DNA of 31,612 nt from a virus (taxonomy: Duplodnaviria > Caudoviricetes). The position numbers were made by a program, and so were the translations under genes. Numbering within the stretch: position 1 is the first letter of the stretch; each line of letters begins with the position of its first letter. Under the pieces are notes generated by a model, which saw only the letters and a program-made list of their open reading frames with translations, did not search any database and was not told the origin of the DNA. Where the stretch lies: positions 1 through 31,612 of the IMG/VR virus record IMGVR_UViG_3300014613_000070; one strand, given 5' to 3'. Positions 9,299 through 18,167 of the stretch are shown in pieces.

Positions 9299-10042
9299 AT
9301 GCTACATACTACGGGTAGATTGGCAAAAGAAGCTAATGCTTGTGAGTCAAGCTATAGTAAGATGGCAAAGGCGCTCGGAGGAGTAAAGAGGTACGGATTA
9401 GATACTCCTATCCCAATTTCAAAGGTGCTAGATGTTTGCGGGCTGGCGGATGCTCTTTGGGTACTGGCAATAACTATTGAGCCGGCAACTACAGCAAAAC
9501 GAGTGTTCGCTTGTGACTGCGCTGAAAGAGTGCTCCCGCTTTACGAGACAGCATTTCCTGATGATGATAGACCCCGACACGCTATTGAAGTTGCACGGAG
9601 TTTCACCAGTGGGGAAGCTACTAAAGAAGAGTTGGGTACTGCTTTTTTGGCCGCTGGTATGGCTGCTATGGATGCTTTGAATGCTCCTGGGGAAGCTTTG
9701 AATGCCCCTGGGGAAGCTTGGGAAGCTGCTAGGGCTGCTTTGGCTGCTAGGGATGCTGTGGATGCTAGGGATGCTTTGGCTGCTAGGCTTGCTTCTTTGG
9801 ATGCCAAGGAGGCTAGGGTTGCTAGGGCTGCTGCTAGGGTTGCTTTGGCTGCTAGGCTTGCTTCTTTGGATGCTAGGGATGCTTTGGCTGCTAGGGATGC
9901 TGTGGATGCTAGGGATGCTTTGGCTGCTAGGCTTGCTTCTTTGGATGCTAGGGATGCTTTGAATGCTGCTGGGGATACTGAGAAAGAATGGCAAATCCAG
10001 CGTTTTAGGGAGCTTTTTTGCTCTGACGAGAAGGAGGTATAG
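9299..10042 (+). CDS. Imm5-like domain protein with Ala-rich tandem repeats
   Basis: FACDCAERVLPLYE...DDRPRHAIEVAR motif followed by an AARDA/ALAAR low-complexity tract and EWQIQRFRELF. Confidence 0.7.
   Translation: MLHTTGRLAKEANACESSYSKMAKALGGVKRYGLDTPIPISKVLDVCGLADALWVLAITIEPATTAKRVFACDCAERVLPLYETAFPDDDRPRHAIEVARSFTSGEATKEELGTAFLAAGMAAMDALNAPGEALNAPGEAWEAARAALAARDAVDARDALAARLASLDAKEARVARAAARVALAARLASLDARDALAARDAVDARDALAARLASLDARDALNAAGDTEKEWQIQRFRELFCSDEKEV
9660..9975 (+). repeat. Intragenic nested GCT-rich tandem repeats
   Basis: Near-identical 21-bp tandem pair (GCTTTGAATGC[T/C]CCTGGGGAA); exact 69-bp direct repeat at 9736-9804 and 9880-9948; many GCTAGGGAT 9-mers. Confidence 0.9.
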
Positions 10043-10045
10043 GTA

Positions 10046-10414
10046 ATGATAACATGGATTACTGCTGACCAACTTAGAGAAGCTAACGCCTGCGAAGAAC
10101 AAGTCAAAACATTCGAGGAAGAATGGCCTGATGGAGCACATATTACCGAGGAGAATATCCTTAAAGCCTACGAACTTGGACTTGACCTTCATTGGTTCGC
10201 AGAGAGCTTCTTGGATTCTCCTCACATGGATGCCTATGATAAGGCAATGGCCCTTCACAGGGATGCCTATGAGAAGGCACTGGCCCCTCACATGGATGCC
10301 TATGATAAGGCAATGGCCCTTCACATGGATGCCTATAAGAAGGCAATGGCCCTTTCACTATGTCAGATTGCACATAGAAAGGAGGGATCAGATGACGATA
10401 AAAGGCGGGGCTAG
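10046..10414 (+). CDS. Hypothetical protein with 11-aa tandem repeats
   Basis: LREANAC...DLHWFA N-domain, then four HMDAYDKAMAL-like units. Confidence 0.8.
   Translation: MITWITADQLREANACEEQVKTFEEEWPDGAHITEENILKAYELGLDLHWFAESFLDSPHMDAYDKAMALHRDAYEKALAPHMDAYDKAMALHMDAYKKAMALSLCQIAHRKEGSDDDKRRG
10223..10354 (+). repeat. Four tandem 33-bp repeats
   Basis: CACATGGATGCCTATGATAAGGCAATGGCCCTT at 10223 and 10289; variants at 10256 and 10322. Confidence 0.95.
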
Positions 10415-11508: not shown

Positions 11509-12288
11509 ATGGAAAATATGGACATATATAATGCAGTCAAAAAACCGCCGCCGTTTGCGCTGAAGCCCATTACGGGAGGAAGGCTACGAGGTTTCACTGA
11601 TGTGAATCCGCAGTGGCGAATTATGGTGATGACCGAGCACTTCGGTGTCTGCGGAGTCGGCTGGAAATATACAATCGAGAAGCTCTGGCTGGAACCAGTT
11701 AGTGCTGAGATATGCGCTTTCGCCGAGGTTGCCCTATCAATTAAGGTAGACGGTGAGTGGAGTTCTCCTATTCCCGGCATCGGCGGCTCCATGCTCCTGG
11801 AGAAGGAAACGAAAGGGTTCCATGTCAGTGACGAGTGCTATAAGATGGCGATAACTGACGCCCTATCGGTGGCAATGAAAATGCTTGGGGTGGCAGGTGA
11901 TGTCTACGCTGGGGCATTTGATGGTTCGAAGTATAGTGAACGTTCATCTGTTTCGAAGAAAGCACCAGAAGAAAAGAGCCAGGTCGATACACCACCACCC
12001 GAGGCATCAAAAGAAGAGCCTGGCAAGCCAGCGGCCCCAGTAGGCGATTCTAGCCATAGCAAAGGGGAAGTAGGTGGCATTGACATGGACTGGCTAGAGG
12101 AATCTCTGAAAGTTTTACAGGATAAAGGGATTAAAGCGTATTCCGATAAGACTATCCTCGCGTATATCAATGCGATAACCCGGGCGGAGCCGAAGCATGC
12201 GACTATATCAGAGGCAGTAGCTAAACTTGATAAAGCACAAGCGAACGGCCTGGTTAAAAGAGTAAGTGATGCCCTTGAGATGGCATAG
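11509..12288 (+). CDS. Single-strand annealing protein, Rad52/Sak-like
   Basis: DVNPQWRI...FGVCGVGWKY and DECYKMAITDALSVAMKMLGVAGDVY motifs; disordered linker and C-terminal helical domain. Confidence 0.8.
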   Translation: MENMDIYNAVKKPPPFALKPITGGRLRGFTDVNPQWRIMVMTEHFGVCGVGWKYTIEKLWLEPVSAEICAFAEVALSIKVDGEWSSPIPGIGGSMLLEKETKGFHVSDECYKMAITDALSVAMKMLGVAGDVYAGAFDGSKYSERSSVSKKAPEEKSQVDTPPPEASKEEPGKPAAPVGDSSHSKGEVGGIDMDWLEESLKVLQDKGIKAYSDKTILAYINAITRAEPKHATISEAVAKLDKAQANGLVKRVSDALEMA

Positions 12289-12304: not shown

Positions 12305-12532
12305 ATGACAAAATCTAAGACTTGGGAATATACTGTGTTGACAGTTGAACAGATAAACCAATTACCAGTAAATAAATTGTCAGGCTTACCTACACCTGTT
12401 GCGGTCGCTAAAGCCCAAGCTAAAATCACAGGGGATATAGCATACGAGGCAGGAAGAGAAGCGGAGAGAAAGTTCATATTGCAGAATACAGATTGTTTAA
12501 AGAGATATTGTAATGCAAAAAAGCAGAATTGA
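12305..12532 (+). CDS. Hypothetical protein
   Basis: GGAGGTG SD, 75 aa. Confidence 0.65.
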   Translation: MTKSKTWEYTVLTVEQINQLPVNKLSGLPTPVAVAKAQAKITGDIAYEAGREAERKFILQNTDCLKRYCNAKKQN

Positions 12533-12992
12533 ATGGACTGACTACACTGTGAATCCTGTTAAAGGACTTTGTCCTATGGACTGTAAGGATAATCAAGGTA
12601 AATCGTATTGTTATGCCAGGGCGATGTATAAGCGGTTTAAGTGGAATCCTGAGATGAGGTTTGACCCTGCTGTTTTCAACAACCTACCGAGAAAGCCAGC
12701 TAAAGTATTTGTGGGTTCTACTATGGAGTTATTTCTGCCGGAATGTGAGGCGTGGCTTGGAAAGACCCTTGACCTAATTAAGCCTTATAAATGGCTTACC
12801 TTCCAATTCTTAACCAAGCAACCTCAGAATCTAATCAAGTGGAGTCCGTTTCCTTCAAATTGTTATGTCGGTGTCTCGGCTACTAACCAGCACCAGTTTG
12901 ATGAGGCGGTGAAATATCTCAAGGAAGTGGAAGCGACTGTAAAATACATCAGTCTTGAGCCTCTTTTAGAGAGAATAAACATTGACCTTTAA
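12513..12992 (+). CDS. DUF5131 (phage Gp37/Gp68, radical-SAM-like) protein, N-terminal part
   Basis: SRIEWTDYTVNPVKGLC...C...CYA, VFVGSTMELF, FQFLTKQP, GVSATNQ and ISLEPLL motifs; stops right after EPLL. Confidence 0.85.
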   Translation: MQKSRIEWTDYTVNPVKGLCPMDCKDNQGKSYCYARAMYKRFKWNPEMRFDPAVFNNLPRKPAKVFVGSTMELFLPECEAWLGKTLDLIKPYKWLTFQFLTKQPQNLIKWSPFPSNCYVGVSATNQHQFDEAVKYLKEVEATVKYISLEPLLERINIDL

Positions 12993-13027
12993 GGGTAAGG
13001 CGTGCTATAATATCCTTAAAGGGAGGG
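12982..13027 (+). promoter_or_regulatory. Promoter embedded in a hairpin upstream of the HNH gene
   Basis: TTGACC-18 bp-TATAAT (13006-11, TG-extended). Inverted repeat CCTTTAAGG (12986-94) / CCTTAAAGG (13014-22) reaches the SD GGGAGG. Confidence 0.7.
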
Positions 13028-13031
13028 TGAT

Positions 13032-13751
13032 ATGCCAGAGATAGGTGAGATTAAAACCGATAGAGAGTTAGGATTAAAGGGTAAGCATAGGCGGAAGTGG
13101 GTTATCTGTCCTCAATGCGGTGAGGGTAGGTGGGTTATCTTGACTGCTACGAAGCGACCTGACTATACAGGATTATGCCATCAGTGTAGTGCCTCTGTTC
13201 GTGGTGGTAAGCGACTAAAAACTAAGGGTAGGTGGAAAACAGGGCAGGGTTATGTAATGAGATTGCTTCATCCCGATGACTTCTTTTTCTCAATGGCTGG
13301 TGCTGACGGATATGTGGGCGAGCATCGTCTAGTGATGGCTCAGAGCTTAGGGCGGTGTTTACATTCTTGGGAAATAGTCCACCACAAAGGAATAAGGGTG
13401 AAGGGTATTGAAAACAGGTCAGATAATCTAATAGATAACCTTCAGCTTGTCTCAGATGATAAGCATAAGCAAATCAGTATTCTTGAAGCTAAGATAACTA
13501 GGCTACAAAAGAAACTACACACCACTAATGTCTATTACCTTCGTGAGATACAACGCCAAGCCGAGCAACTCAAATCAAGAGAGATTTTAGCCTTGAAGCG
13601 TAGGGATGATGGTATCTTTGAAATCTATGCTGATGGTGACTTGGTTGAGGAATATGAAGCCAATGAGGATACTTGGGGAGCTTTACTACCGATAAAACTT
13701 TGGAGACATTTTAATAATATAGTTGATAGGAGAATTAAAGATGGAAACTGA
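13032..13751 (+). CDS. HNH homing endonuclease with N-terminal zinc finger and C-terminal extension
   Basis: CPQC/CHQC, GYVGEHRLVMAQSLGRCLHSWEIVHH...DNLIDNLQL; paralogue of 23746..24279. Confidence 0.88.
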   Translation: MPEIGEIKTDRELGLKGKHRRKWVICPQCGEGRWVILTATKRPDYTGLCHQCSASVRGGKRLKTKGRWKTGQGYVMRLLHPDDFFFSMAGADGYVGEHRLVMAQSLGRCLHSWEIVHHKGIRVKGIENRSDNLIDNLQLVSDDKHKQISILEAKITRLQKKLHTTNVYYLREIQRQAEQLKSREILALKRRDDGIFEIYADGDLVEEYEANEDTWGALLPIKLWRHFNNIVDRRIKDGN

Positions 13752-13992
13752 TTGCCCTCCAGGGGGAACTGGACATTGTAACGATGGATGCCCTTTTTGG
13801 AAGGATAGTAAATGCTGTCCCCCAGATTTTCCTGAAGGGTATTTATGCCGAAGGTGCAAAGATACAGGAACGATACTATTTGACACCTTTAAGGATATGG
13901 GACTTAATCGTGCAGAGCGTAGACGGAGAGGCAGGGATGATAGCCAAAGGTATAAATATATTCCGTGTCCAGAATGTAAGGGAGGTAACTAA
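13741..13992 (+). CDS. Cys-rich hypothetical protein
   Basis: AGGAG SD before ATG 13741; C..C..C..CC cluster plus CRRCKDTG and CPECKG. Confidence 0.65.
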   Translation: METDCPPGGTGHCNDGCPFWKDSKCCPPDFPEGYLCRRCKDTGTILFDTFKDMGLNRAERRRRGRDDSQRYKYIPCPECKGGN

Positions 13993-14252
13993 TGCCGAAT
14001 AAATTAAAGGAATCTGGCATCAATCAGGTAATCATCGGCGCTCAGACTCCATACAATCCAAAGACAGCACCGAAGATAGAGTGGATAGAGGAGATAGTCC
14101 AAGCTGCGGACAAGGCTGGTGTATCGGTGTTCATAAAAAATAACCTTGCTGGCTTACTTTCTCACCAAGATAGATGGGCATTTAGCCAAGATGAGAACAT
14201 ACCAGAAATGCTGAGATTACGACAGGAGATACCGAATGGAACAACCGGATGA
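13992..14252 (+). CDS. DUF5131 protein, C-terminal part
   Basis: INQVIIGAQT, PKIEWIEEIVQAADKAGVSVFIKNNL and LRQEIP are the family's C-terminal motifs; has its own GGAGG SD. Confidence 0.85.
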   Translation: MPNKLKESGINQVIIGAQTPYNPKTAPKIEWIEEIVQAADKAGVSVFIKNNLAGLLSHQDRWAFSQDENIPEMLRLRQEIPNGTTG

Positions 14253-14879: not shown

Positions 14880-15623
14880 ATGGCTAGAACCCAAAAGAAT
14901 GTAGTTAGTTACTTCCCCCATGATGCCAATGCTTGTACCGGGGATACCTTGACAGTCCTACAGAGCCGGTTCGGGAATGATGGTTATGCCTTCTGGTTTA
15001 AACTCTTAGAGAAATTAGCCTCCACAGATGGTCATGCCCTCGATGTTAGCAACCCAACAAAGTGGCAACTACTATTAGCAAAAATGGGTGTTAATGAAAT
15101 AACTGGTGTAGAAATAATGAATTTACTTGTAGAAATGCAGGCGATTGATAAGGACCTCTGGGACTCAAAGCTAATCTGGTGCCAAAACCTAGTAAATAAC
15201 CTTGCTGATGTTTATAAAAATCGGCGTAGGGAAATACCGCAAATACCCATTTCTACAAACCATAATGGGATAACTACAGAAAAGAAAGCCATAACTACAG
15301 GTGATAGTACACAAAGTAAAGTAAAGAAAGTAAAGAAAGTAAATAAGATAATACTACCGGGCTTTATTGATAAAGAAATCTGGGAGTCTTACTTAAAGAC
15401 ACGAAGGAAAACAACAGAGCATGCTATTTTTTTGCTGGTGAAGAAACTTGAGGAACTTCGTGCTGCCGGCGATGATCCTAATGAAGTCCTTAAAAGGTCG
15501 ATAATGAACGGCTGGACTGGAATATTCCCATTGAATCATAAAGGAGGTCAAGGTGGAACACATCGCCAAAATCCTCGACAACTTAGCCCCAGAGGAAGCT
15601 ATACCAAGCCGGAAGATTTATGA
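14880..15623 (+). CDS. Replication initiator (Lin1244/DUF4373-like N-terminus)
   Basis: YFPHDA...FGNDGYAFWFKLLEKL; C-terminal WESYLKTR...SIMNGWTGIF; followed by a DnaC-like gene. SD AGGAG/GAGG before ATG 14880. Confidence 0.85.
   Translation: MARTQKNVVSYFPHDANACTGDTLTVLQSRFGNDGYAFWFKLLEKLASTDGHALDVSNPTKWQLLLAKMGVNEITGVEIMNLLVEMQAIDKDLWDSKLIWCQNLVNNLADVYKNRRREIPQIPISTNHNGITTEKKAITTGDSTQSKVKKVKKVNKIILPGFIDKEIWESYLKTRRKTTEHAIFLLVKKLEELRAAGDDPNEVLKRSIMNGWTGIFPLNHKGGQGGTHRQNPRQLSPRGSYTKPEDL
15095..15355. repeat. Putative replication origin (iterons plus A-rich tract) inside the initiator gene
   Basis: ATAACTACAG at 15270 and 15291; TTGTAGAAATG (15127-37) is inverted to CATTTCTACAA (15248-58); tandem AAAGTAAAG run at ~15313-15345. 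Confidence 0.55.
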
Positions 15624-16242
15624 GCTACCTGAATTAACCCCAGAGGAAGAGATGGAAGAAAAAAGAAGGTCGCTTGGTGTTTCTAGTCTTAGCAATACCT
15701 TTCAAAACTTTCTTCCTTGGCCTGGAACTGAAGAGGCACTAGCCGCTTTCAAAGCATTGGCATCAGGTGAAACAAAGTGGCAGATGCTTCTCTGCTATGG
15801 TGGTGTGGGAAATGGTAAGACTTATTTATGCGAAGCTACTACGATAGCCCTTGCCGACCGTGGGCTCTTCGCCCGTGTTAATACTATGGCTGGCGTGATG
15901 CGGTCTCTGAGGGGGGGATTGGACAAAGATGCTATTTTTGGTTATAACGAAATGTTTCCCAGGTTGTGTAAGTTAAAAAGGCTAATTATAGATGATGTGG
16001 GTATGGGGAGTAGCGGTAGCGACTGGGAATATGGCCAACTTGAGGAGCTTATTGCCGAGAGATACCGAGAAAACCTTTTTACCATATTGACCACTAACCG
16101 TGATATAAAGCCTGACACTAAGCACCCGAACACGCCTGTTATACCTGAACGTATTGTGTCACGCTTCCGTGACCGAGAAAAGGCGAGGTTGGTGCTTAAT
16201 CAAGGCGAAGATTACCGGCCTGAGAAGGAAAAGGCAAGGTAA
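15553..16242 (+). CDS. DnaC/IstB-like AAA+ helicase loader
   Basis: Walker A GGVGNGKT, Walker B LIIDDVG, TILTTN and ERIVSR motifs. Confidence 0.9.
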   Translation: MEHIAKILDNLAPEEAIPSRKIYELPELTPEEEMEEKRRSLGVSSLSNTFQNFLPWPGTEEALAAFKALASGETKWQMLLCYGGVGNGKTYLCEATTIALADRGLFARVNTMAGVMRSLRGGLDKDAIFGYNEMFPRLCKLKRLIIDDVGMGSSGSDWEYGQLEELIAERYRENLFTILTTNRDIKPDTKHPNTPVIPERIVSRFRDREKARLVLNQGEDYRPEKEKAR

Positions 16243-16285
16243 TGAAGAAGTACCAGATATATGCTGAAAGGATAAGGAGGTGAAC

Positions 16286-16585
16286 ATGGACAAGACTGAG
16301 ATTAGAAAGTATGTAGAGGACAACGATGAGGTAGGTTTAACACCCGCTGAGCTAGACCACGTGGCTACGTGCTGTGAGCGTATAAGCAGGTGGTATTATG
16401 AGGGTTATCCGCTTGGGAGCTTCTTGACCGCAGTTGTTAGAAATGACTTTATAGAGACAGTATTTCAAGCTGACGACGTCAACATAAAGGCATTAGAAAT
16501 ATATGCCTATTTTCTTACATGGAACTTACCATCCGATTGGAGAAAGAAAGCTAATCCTGTTGGGGCAATGAAGTTAGGCCTATGA
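16286..16585 (+). CDS. Hypothetical phage protein (cassette 1)
   Basis: AAGGAGGTG SD; GSFLTAVVRND...ADDVN motif; ends in the TGGGGCAATGAAGT repeat. Confidence 0.75.
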   Translation: MDKTEIRKYVEDNDEVGLTPAELDHVATCCERISRWYYEGYPLGSFLTAVVRNDFIETVFQADDVNIKALEIYAYFLTWNLPSDWRKKANPVGAMKLGL

Positions 16586-17103
16586 AGTATCCTAAAACAG
16601 TAGACGAACTAATACATTGGGACACATTTACTCAGCGTGATTCCTTTGGCTCATTTACTGTTATTACTGGGTTTGAAGGTACGGGTCATTGCTTCTGGTG
16701 TGGAGACGAAATACAAGGGAGGAGACGCTATTGTGGTGGAAACAAGGGGTGCTGGACACAATACTATAAACATTTTGGCCGGACTTATGCTGCTAATGCT
16801 GCTAGGAAACGAGCACTTTTTAGCTGTGAAAATTGCGGAGTACAAGGGATTGATATTCCGCCGATTGGTCGTTATGAAAGGTCAGGGCTTGAAGTCCATC
16901 ATATTATACCGATAAATGGCGAAGATAGGACTGTCCATGTTTATAATATCTTTTGGAATCTCATTTGCCTTTGCCACGATTGTCACATGGAATTGCACGC
17001 TATCATGAGACCTCCAAAGATAGATAAACCCATAGCAATCGACAGTTGGGAGGAAGCCGTGAAAGTTAGACAATCAATATTCAGTTTTGGGGCAATGAAG
17101 TAG
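16582..17103 (+). CDS. HNH endonuclease (cassette 2)
   Basis: CENCG...LEVHHIIP...NLICLCHDCHMELH; N-terminal CFWC...YC...C. Confidence 0.85.
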   Translation: MKYPKTVDELIHWDTFTQRDSFGSFTVITGFEGTGHCFWCGDEIQGRRRYCGGNKGCWTQYYKHFGRTYAANAARKRALFSCENCGVQGIDIPPIGRYERSGLEVHHIIPINGEDRTVHVYNIFWNLICLCHDCHMELHAIMRPPKIDKPIAIDSWEEAVKVRQSIFSFGAMK

Positions 17104-17135
17104 CGAGTGATATAACTAAAGGAGGAACGGATAAG

Positions 17136-17372
17136 ATGAATACCATTAAAGACTTGATAGAAACACACCAAGGAGAAATAGACAAGTTTATTAAAGACTG
17201 TCCTCATTTGGATATTATTGTTGAGGATGAATCTTTCGGGTGGCAAAGGTCAATAACAATTAGATGTAAAAGGTGCAGGCTTAATCTAGTTGGTTATATT
17301 GTCAACAAAAGCCAAAGTTATTTATCTTATGTTCGTGATTGTATTGCTAAGTACCCTGGAAACATGAAGTAG
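17136..17372 (+). CDS. Hypothetical protein (cassette 3)
   Basis: AAGGAGG SD; CPH...CKRC motif. Confidence 0.7.
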   Translation: MNTIKDLIETHQGEIDKFIKDCPHLDIIVEDESFGWQRSITIRCKRCRLNLVGYIVNKSQSYLSYVRDCIAKYPGNMK

Positions 17373-17412
17373 AGTCGGACATAGAACTTTAATCAAGAGG
17401 TAAGGAGGGGAA

Positions 17413-17631
17413 ATGACACAGAGACAGAAATGTTTTCATTGTGGAGAGAAAGAAGGAATATTGGTGAGGTTAACTCCTCGGGAGAATAACAATAAAACAG
17501 TTTGTATGGAATGTTTATGGGCAAGACACCCCAAAACCGCACTGGAAATGCTAGAATTTATTTTGGATAAGGAACAAGCAGAAACTCAGGCTGGGATTAT
17601 TGGAGTATGGGGCAATGAAGTAGAGAGTTAG
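17413..17631 (+). CDS. Small zinc-finger protein (cassette 4)
   Basis: AAGGAGG SD; CFHC...CMEC. Confidence 0.7.
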   Translation: MTQRQKCFHCGEKEGILVRLTPRENNNKTVCMECLWARHPKTALEMLEFILDKEQAETQAGIIGVWGNEVES

Positions 17632-17635
17632 AATT

Positions 17636-18040
17636 ATGATACCTATTTTAACAGGCAAAGTAAAAGACGGGAAGCTTAAATTAGATGCTCCTCAAAATTA
17701 CCTTGTTGAGCTCTCCAAGTTTGAGGGGCAACGTATTGAATTAACCATCCGGAAAGAACGCCATATAAGGTCGCTCAGTCAGAATAAATATTATTGGGGC
17801 GTGATAATTGAGATACTATCCAATAATTTCGGTTATGATAAAGAGGAGATGCATGAAGAATTAAAGAGGAAATTCAACCCCAAACCTAGTAAAATAGACT
17901 GCGACAAAACTTATGGGGCATCAACTACCAAGATGTCTGTTGCTGAATTCGGAGAATATTTGGAGCAGGTTATAACTTGGGCATCAGTAGAATATGGAAT
18001 CATTATACCCGATTCCGATGGAGTATATATCGATGGCTAG
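17636..18040 (+). CDS. NinB/Orf-like recombination protein
   Basis: RSLSQNKYYWG, EEMHEELK and STTKMSVAEFGEYLEQV motifs. Confidence 0.75.
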   Translation: MIPILTGKVKDGKLKLDAPQNYLVELSKFEGQRIELTIRKERHIRSLSQNKYYWGVIIEILSNNFGYDKEEMHEELKRKFNPKPSKIDCDKTYGASTTKMSVAEFGEYLEQVITWASVEYGIIIPDSDGVYIDG

Positions 18041-18167
18041 ACCGCCCAATCCCCTGTCAAGGGGTGGTCAAAATGTAATTGGAAACATACAACCGTTATG
18101 TTCATCATGTAATTCTAGTAAGAGGGAGAAATTTATTCCCAGTGCGGATGGGATTGAAATACAGTGA
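18033..18167 (+). pseudogene. Internally deleted HNH endonuclease remnant (44 aa)
   Basis: MARPPNPLSRGGQNVIGNIQPLCSSCNSSKREKFIPSADGIEIQ: the C-terminal half of an HNH motif lacking the DH catalytic residues. Not in the ORF track. Confidence 0.75.

Follow-up and report, generated by a model that had tools for sequence, protein, structure and literature searches.

The window, i.e. the whole stretch of DNA that was analysed, is a linear virus record of 31.6 kb with an estimated completeness of 74%, and it encodes terminase, portal, protease, capsid and tape-measure genes. The four public runs containing this stretch are groundwater metagenomes. The region described here lies after a DnaC-like gene and before NinB- and NinG-like genes. 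It is a worn array of cargo genes having one copy of a short sequence S and four copies of a repeat E. The features are given below in order of position.

11509..12288, +, likely Rad52/Sak-type single-strand annealing protein, a candidate catalyst (atlas features 0.94, model TM 0.93 to Rad52/22-named clusters)
15553..16242, +, DnaC-like helicase loader gene (phrog_50, E 1.6e-27), with a stop codon overlapping the S start codon ATG
16242..16267, +, S, 5′ end of an MT-A70 gene (MKKYQIYA), aligned to the intact MT-A70 start in L004 and one Ile codon short
Stop at 16283, +, leader of 13 codons opened by S
16273..16283, +, strong Shine-Dalgarno (SD) sequence joined to S and serving ORF1 (duplex −17.6 kcal/mol)
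16286..16585, +, cargo ORF1, 99 aa, without an assigned family (protein family of 76 clusters)
16558..16574, +, E copy 1, cut short at about 17 bp; other alleles run on into the full E
16582..17103, +, cargo ORF2, HNH endonuclease, 173 aa (PF01844; phrog_119; relatives)
17088..17117, +, E copy 2, after which ORF3 has its own SD
17136..17372, +, cargo ORF3, 78 aa, no Pfam or PHROG match (16 relatives matched, 13 compared)
17364..17392, +, E copy 3, the 3′ part of the MT-A70 tail with a TCG serine variant that also occurs in intact MT genes
17413..17631, +, cargo ORF4, 72 aa, Cys-pair protein ending in the MT frame of E
17608..17635, +, E copy 4, lacking 4 bp that are also deleted in L060 and L294, and fused to the start codon of ninB
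17636..18040, +, NinB/Orf-like gene (phrog_72), with E directly upstream also in L004 and L192

No family could be assigned to ORF1, ORF3 and ORF4 by Pfam and PHROG profile searches. Relatives of ORF1 are found with E in L082 and L157, and without S or E in L275. The sequence ATGAAGTAG is located at 17095, 17364 and 17615.

The repeat was first reported in the initial annotation as an exact 14-mer at 16561, 17088 and 17608, and this was borne out, copies being found in 0 of 100 shuffles; the spacings of 527, 269 and 251 bp, the presence of a single ORF in each unit and the agreement between copies 2 and 4 at 20 of 21 positions are also borne out by the sequence. The repeat does stand at the end of each ORF, but its extent had been taken too short, the unit being approximately 33–36 bp. 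The C-terminal peptides were read correctly, while the separate reading frames proposed for them reduce to one frame for copies 1–3 and another for copy 4. A degenerate third copy is indeed present; the first half of what was described is probably the own coding sequence of ORF3 (a relative reads KYPGNMRR), and E starts at 17364. Three features had been overlooked, namely the identity of the repeat as the coding tail of an MT-A70 gene, its 5′ partner S at 16242, and the HNH endonuclease encoded by ORF2.

Some other observations were made in the window. A DUF5131 gene (12513–14252) is split by an HNH gene (13032–13751) and a small ORF, both parts matching phrog_2045. The HNH genes at 13032 and 23746 are related, 20 of their 21 first bases being identical, and an HNH fragment lies between ninB and ninG (17994–18167). 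An Imm5-like protein (9299–10414) has long 9-bp tandem repeats, and the next gene has 33-bp repeats.

Relation of E and S to the MT-A70 gene

Judged by its coding frame, E is almost certainly the 3′ end of an MT-A70 adenine methyltransferase (MT) gene, reading WGNEVESDIEL-stop. The motif continues the frame ELFAR..GW..WGNEVESDIEL-stop in many of the 53 loci obtained by the viral-contig scan, and both E and S match the coding ends of PF05063 genes. An intact MT-A70 gene (PF05063 at 3.6e-28) is present in L004 directly upstream of a ninB that is 65% identical to that of the window, and E copies 1, 2, 3 and 4 of the window agree with the 3′ end of this gene at 18, 26, 24 and 23 of 33 ungapped positions. 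The window holds the termini only, an intact MT-A70 gene being absent from it by profile search. The serine codon TCG instead of AGT was seen in two MT and four non-MT copies of E, copy 3 of the window among them, which suggests repeated derivation of E from coding alleles.

Each of the three frames contains a stop in E, and E has an SD of moderate strength. The earlier remark that the repeat is not an SD is true of the 14-mer only, as the full E pairs with the anti-SD at −9.3 kcal/mol, copies 1 and 4 weakly. The 3′ half of E was used as the search anchor for secondary copies, and the conservation of E is partly set by the search patterns. The left edges of the secondary copies vary in position across about 20 bp, which led to the rejection of one sharp left boundary for E; their 3′ half (SD-spacer-ATG) is the least eroded, and many copies of E are only about 18–25 bp long.

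Protein binding or RNA processing had been offered earlier as a function of the repeat, and in a reading of this kind, RNA binding included, E would be a regulatory site like the start-associated sequences of cluster K phages. The orientation of E is in keeping with it, as all 32 secondary copies in the locus flanks lie on the same strand (none were found in five shuffles), and so is its place just before start codons in an accessory region. Such an origin is nevertheless highly improbable because the sequence is explained by protein coding, including the TCG/AGT serine switch in MT and non-MT copies. Moreover, the 5′ half of E erodes freely, the repeat has no Rfam match, no promoter or terminator excess was detected in S and E, and E forms no stable structure, its top-strand folds being no better than those of shuffles. 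In agreement with the initial annotation, no integrase and no attC-like fold were found in the window by profile search and folding, and no attC-like palindrome is among the 25 longest inverted repeats listed there.

S is, from its alignment, the 5′ end of the same MT-A70 gene and the partner of E. It was found 119 times, with 95 non-MT copies and 24 classed as MT (one of these a fusion). As many as 34 of the 95 non-MT copies lie directly behind E, where 1–2 are expected under the null. E follows S within 1.5 kb in 28/32 cases against 73/2000 random windows, the loci being mostly picked by E; in loci picked by S alone an adjacent E was present in 7/7, two of them being new contigs. The stop of the S leader overlaps the cargo start in 21/44, a count inflated by shared ancestry, which leaves the bicistronic leader as a possible but weakly supported role for S. 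There are 13 in-frame fusions to S. A Mom-family gene fused in frame to S was observed at L109:113-802 on the minus strand. The HNH start MKYP was considered as a remnant of S and rejected, as relatives natively start M-N/K-Y-P.

The MT-A70 gene itself appears from these comparisons to be cargo, having near-identical ends on polyphyletic interiors. In 25 MT genes with full tails the interiors average 38% amino acid and 48% nucleotide identity, while S averages 79% and E 90%, a value on which the selection of E by the search bears. Near-standard ends are present in 17 of 35 distinct MT genes, grouped by mismatch thresholds set before the tree was made; these genes do not form one clade (AU p 3e-71), and their interiors require 12 changes of label on the tree, which is the number obtained with shuffles. 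The MT interior of L004 is 75% identical to that of L048, which has other ends.

Neighbours, cargo and spread of the frame

The repeat had been regarded as a recombination boundary. The motif was found at homologous loci and the gene content of related contigs does differ at it. The gene before ninB is ORF4 in the window, Dam in L192 and MT-A70 in L004, and the ninB genes of the window and L192 are 89% identical. L124 and L225 are 100% identical over 250 bp downstream of E, with an MT gene upstream in one and another gene in the other; L082 and L157 are 97.6% identical upstream of E and unrelated downstream. Five loci with a DnaC 39–52% identical to that of the window have other genes behind it, S and E being present in four of them and neither in L002. 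Single swap pairs of this kind could be misassembled across E.

Homologous pairs were counted at 171 E junctions, which gave 2 two-sided pairs (one a duplicate), 56 left-only pairs (16 of them not MT-MT) and 11 right-only pairs. Among 497 control gene starts lacking both S and E, 3 pairs were two-sided and 15 one-sided. Of the non-duplicate, non-MT-MT pairs at E, 27/28 are one-sided, against 15/18 control pairs. Phages here are mosaic at most gene borders, and ordinary gene starts are about as mosaic as E. Since the linkage is mostly broken at control borders also, E is not established as a hotter breakpoint or as the cause of the changes.

The control thus speaks for an explanation by passive joints, in which S and E would be remnants of an MT-A70 gene that was replaced many times, kept for stops, ribosome site and translational coupling, with illegitimate recombination acting at gene borders and arm homology adding little. 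The SD-spacer-ATG half, which is the least eroded part of E and carries its pairing with the anti-SD, the three-frame stops and the overlap of the S-leader stop with cargo starts are consistent with this. It does not readily explain the base-precise arrays described below, the DNA-identical ends on polyphyletic MT interiors, the keeping of S before cargo which has its own SD, or the excess of ATGAAG behind E; we consider it rather unlikely, with some weight left to it.

The metagenome scan for E returned 122 loci of an estimated 220. Altogether it gave 117 distinct upstream contexts, of which the short-flanked ones were set aside; in the 111 distinct hits with 64 bp upstream the sequence before E is non-MT in 89 and MT in 22. 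The ORFs upstream of E number 145 in 112 clusters and the downstream ORFs 173 in 141 clusters, after removal of 13 duplicate loci. In L029 six S-cargo-E units stand in tandem, with E followed by S in base-precise joints (E-S joints), and one of the cargo genes is a relative of ORF1. The labels 'Mom-like' and 'Dcm-like', considered for two L029 cargo genes, were not used as no Pfam match was found.

Fifteen other records with S or E have few structural genes in common with the window and fall into several sets, and the frame accordingly crosses phage lineages. It is often located downstream of a DnaC-like or P-loop gene. One P-loop-like protein family with a C-terminal zinc finger (L254:6511-7404, L029:441-1421), which has no annotation, was observed in 8 record lineages, and in two lineages it occupies the dnaC position just before S. 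The cargo and neighbour genes include N6/N4 and Dam methyltransferases, a Mom-family gene, PAPS-reductase-like genes and a Tad6 anti-defence gene. The last, of the Tad6 anti-Thoeris family, lies at L171:428-940 directly behind an E-S joint. In G004 and G011 S and E were observed on opposite strands at the same relative places, a layout that may be an assembly join.

A strict E pattern gave no match in species genomes, and a looser one gave four, in Bacillota and Patescibacteria assemblies (L231 of these entered the ORF clustering). The E-S joint has no match among GenBank phages.

Judged by the protein ends, the cargo families seem mostly to exist outside the frame, which counts against the frame as a vehicle of exchange, an E-derived tail being present in 4–6 of 75 other ORF1 relatives, 4–8 of 60 HNH relatives, 0 of 6 for ORF4 and 0 of 13 compared for ORF3. 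These counts bear on the possibility that a nuclease, e.g. the HNH cargo, cuts intact MT-A70 alleles and drives their replacement by framed cassettes in a homing-like manner. The order of ORF2 and E in the window, about 4–5 HNH relatives that end in E-derived peptides and the presence of an intact MT in only 3/17 records would fit such a process, which is very unlikely all the same: most of the 60 HNH relatives are without the tail, no HNH was found in about 100 other upstream representatives scanned, and 17 distant HNH loci are without S or E.

The words of E and S (window 17092–17120 and 16242–16270) are far deeper than the phage itself in the four groundwater runs, and for this reason the frame is regarded as common in those communities. 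The summed contig depth at copy 2 is 1666/3420/331/343 in the four runs against about 23/26/15/2 nearby, which would be the ground for taking the array as an assembly chimera across a very common sequence. The probability of this is negligible, as one contig of run X1 (which may be the source sample) covers copies 2–4 without difference, the other runs cover single copies, and a second record has the same array; the cargo-E joints are not misjoins because too few bases are in common.

Proposed movement of the cassettes

The origin of both ends, the S-cargo-E layout, the precise E-S tandem arrays, the changed neighbours and the mosaic MT interiors are established, and on this basis we think it fairly probable that the two-ended S/E frame lets phages of one gene pool swap and stack foreign genes via short-homology annealing. 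The movement may be pictured in four steps. In the first, MT-A70 alleles would exchange interiors at their two conserved motif ends, by which the ends become homogenised. In the second, foreign genes would enter the frame by microhomology, leaving ragged inner edges, and whole-gene joints would survive, aided by the three-frame stops of E and the ribosome site in each end. In the third, framed genes would replace the MT gene or other cargo through arms of 18–36 bp, probably via phage annealases. In the fourth, E-S joints (circle or tandem) would enter existing frames and yield arrays, or would be joined to further gene starts at ATGA(AG).

The edges of the units are of two kinds. The inner edges are ragged and coincide with the natural ends of genes (the relatives of ORF1, ORF2 and ORF4 end within a few codons of the E join), and the outer edges are precise, at ATG on both sides. 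Genes fused directly behind E (S excluded) start with ATGA in 71/72, ATGAA in 48/72 and ATGAAG in 21/72, and the control starts give 185/375, 79/375 and 11/375. When collapsed by family, ATGAAG occurs in 13/56 behind E against 11/185 in the control (p 5e-4), the 72 genes falling in 57 families. The MT stop codon could account for ATGA by itself, but the extended prefixes correspond to the beginning of S. This excess of prefixes of S suggests an E-S intermediate, circle or tandem, entering gene starts by microhomology. Such joints would be tolerable because every frame is closed by a stop in E, which also has a moderate SD.

Neither a circle nor a deletion allele of the array, for which a search had been proposed, was demonstrated, and no pair of empty and filled versions of this array was obtained. 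E-to-S joints are present in contigs of three of the four runs and loose ends pile up at the edges of S and E; as all four runs are contigs, these joints fit circles and tandem arrays equally.

The initial annotation had suggested a Sak/Rad52-like annealase as the agent. A likely Rad52/Sak-type gene is in fact present in the window, as a candidate; related loci have RecT-like genes instead of Sak-like ones. The product of 11509..12288 has no Pfam or PDB sequence match, and its role as annealase, predicted from the model, should be taken as a lead only. The Rad52_Rad22 family was found in 1/17 records, and the ERF and AAA_24 families in 0/16. The minimum homology of Red-beta is cited as 23–27 bp in the account of PMC3945230; the arm length would be near this minimum, and copies of about 18–25 bp would be short for annealing.

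Excision of an S-cargo-E circle by a dedicated phage or host enzyme, followed by insertion at ATGA(AG) starts in the manner of an integron or IS, would agree with the precise outer edges, with the 4–10 bases of the start of S in 71/72 genes behind E, and with more than 100 cargo clusters. We hold it to be quite unlikely in view of the ragged inner edges, the lack of a stable fold and the gene content of the records: the integrase family PF00589 is in 1/17 and not in the window (a record 74% complete), searches for serine recombinase, reverse transcriptase, IS110 and Y1 gave 0/17 records for PF00239 and PF00078 and 0/16 for PF01548 and PF01797, and no gene family is common to all S/E records. 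Absence of the enzyme is not proven by this, because the search covered virus records only and most of them are incomplete. A bolder extension is doubtful. In it MT-A70 would be a self-spreading universal gene socket with its two termini as attachment ends, and cassettes would leave as E-S circles and enter ATGA(AG) starts; several phage lineages without relation to one another would take their accessory genes from a common, stackable stock of hundreds, and the whole would amount to an integron equivalent, possibly served by a further enzyme.

Comparison with known systems

Solitary phage MT-A70 (PF05063) methyltransferases are the source of both ends, and intact genes persist in the same frame. 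No earlier report of MT-A70 termini as linkers was found in a literature search of limited depth.

In the account of PMC3029335, the boundary (linker) model of mosaic phages has short conserved sequences at gene borders, with general recombination proposed; conserved linkers versus illegitimate recombination with selection is described there as a long-standing question, clear linkers being usually missing, and in Island3 an inserted gene is flanked by about 50 bp of duplicated gene 3′ end. S and E resemble boundary sequences in being short conserved sequences where unrelated genes alternate at borders. They differ in that they are a paired frame from one named gene, occur at several places per genome with more than 100 cargo clusters, and stand in tandem arrays in records with few common structural genes. 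As the S/E linker is of known origin and offers two ends, over 100 natural joints and an ancestral allele still circulating, it is a single system in which both the linker and the illegitimate-recombination models are open to testing. The frame is also a marker of likely accessory genes, and since the cargo is mostly without annotation and includes such genes, the S and E motifs are a cheap route to candidate DNA-modification and counter-defence genes.

The PeSL cassettes of T4-type phages, as presented in PMC2839356, are non-essential genes bounded by dispersed repeats, for which repeat recombination and mini-circles were shown. Dispersed repeats bounding accessory genes are common to PeSLs and S/E. 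A PeSL consists of a promoter and a stem-loop, whereas S and E are without promoter, terminator or fold and are coding-derived; likewise, mini-circles are shown for PeSLs, and the contig joints of S/E fit circles or tandem arrays. The start-associated sequences (SAS) of cluster K mycobacteriophages are characterised in PMC3203893 as asymmetric, in one orientation, upstream of starts, with an SD-like part and in the non-structural region. E is similarly asymmetric, stands immediately ahead of start codons and has SD-like pairing, but SAS stay with the same gene families and E changes its neighbours (the 72 genes behind it represent 57 families). The origin of E can, moreover, be traced to a gene, and E has a partner at the 5′ side.

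Integron cassette arrays and CALINs, phages included, are treated in PMC9892861. The array is like them in its accessory cargo and in consisting of consecutive one-gene units with a related site at the end of each; unlike them, S/E forms no attC hairpin by folding, has ragged inner edges and has two different ends, and no IntI was found in the window. By these comparisons S/E would work like the lambdoid boundary sequences or the T4 PeSLs and not as an integron, and it is probably a real and new form of linker-mediated cassette exchange, operating through a mechanism that we infer.
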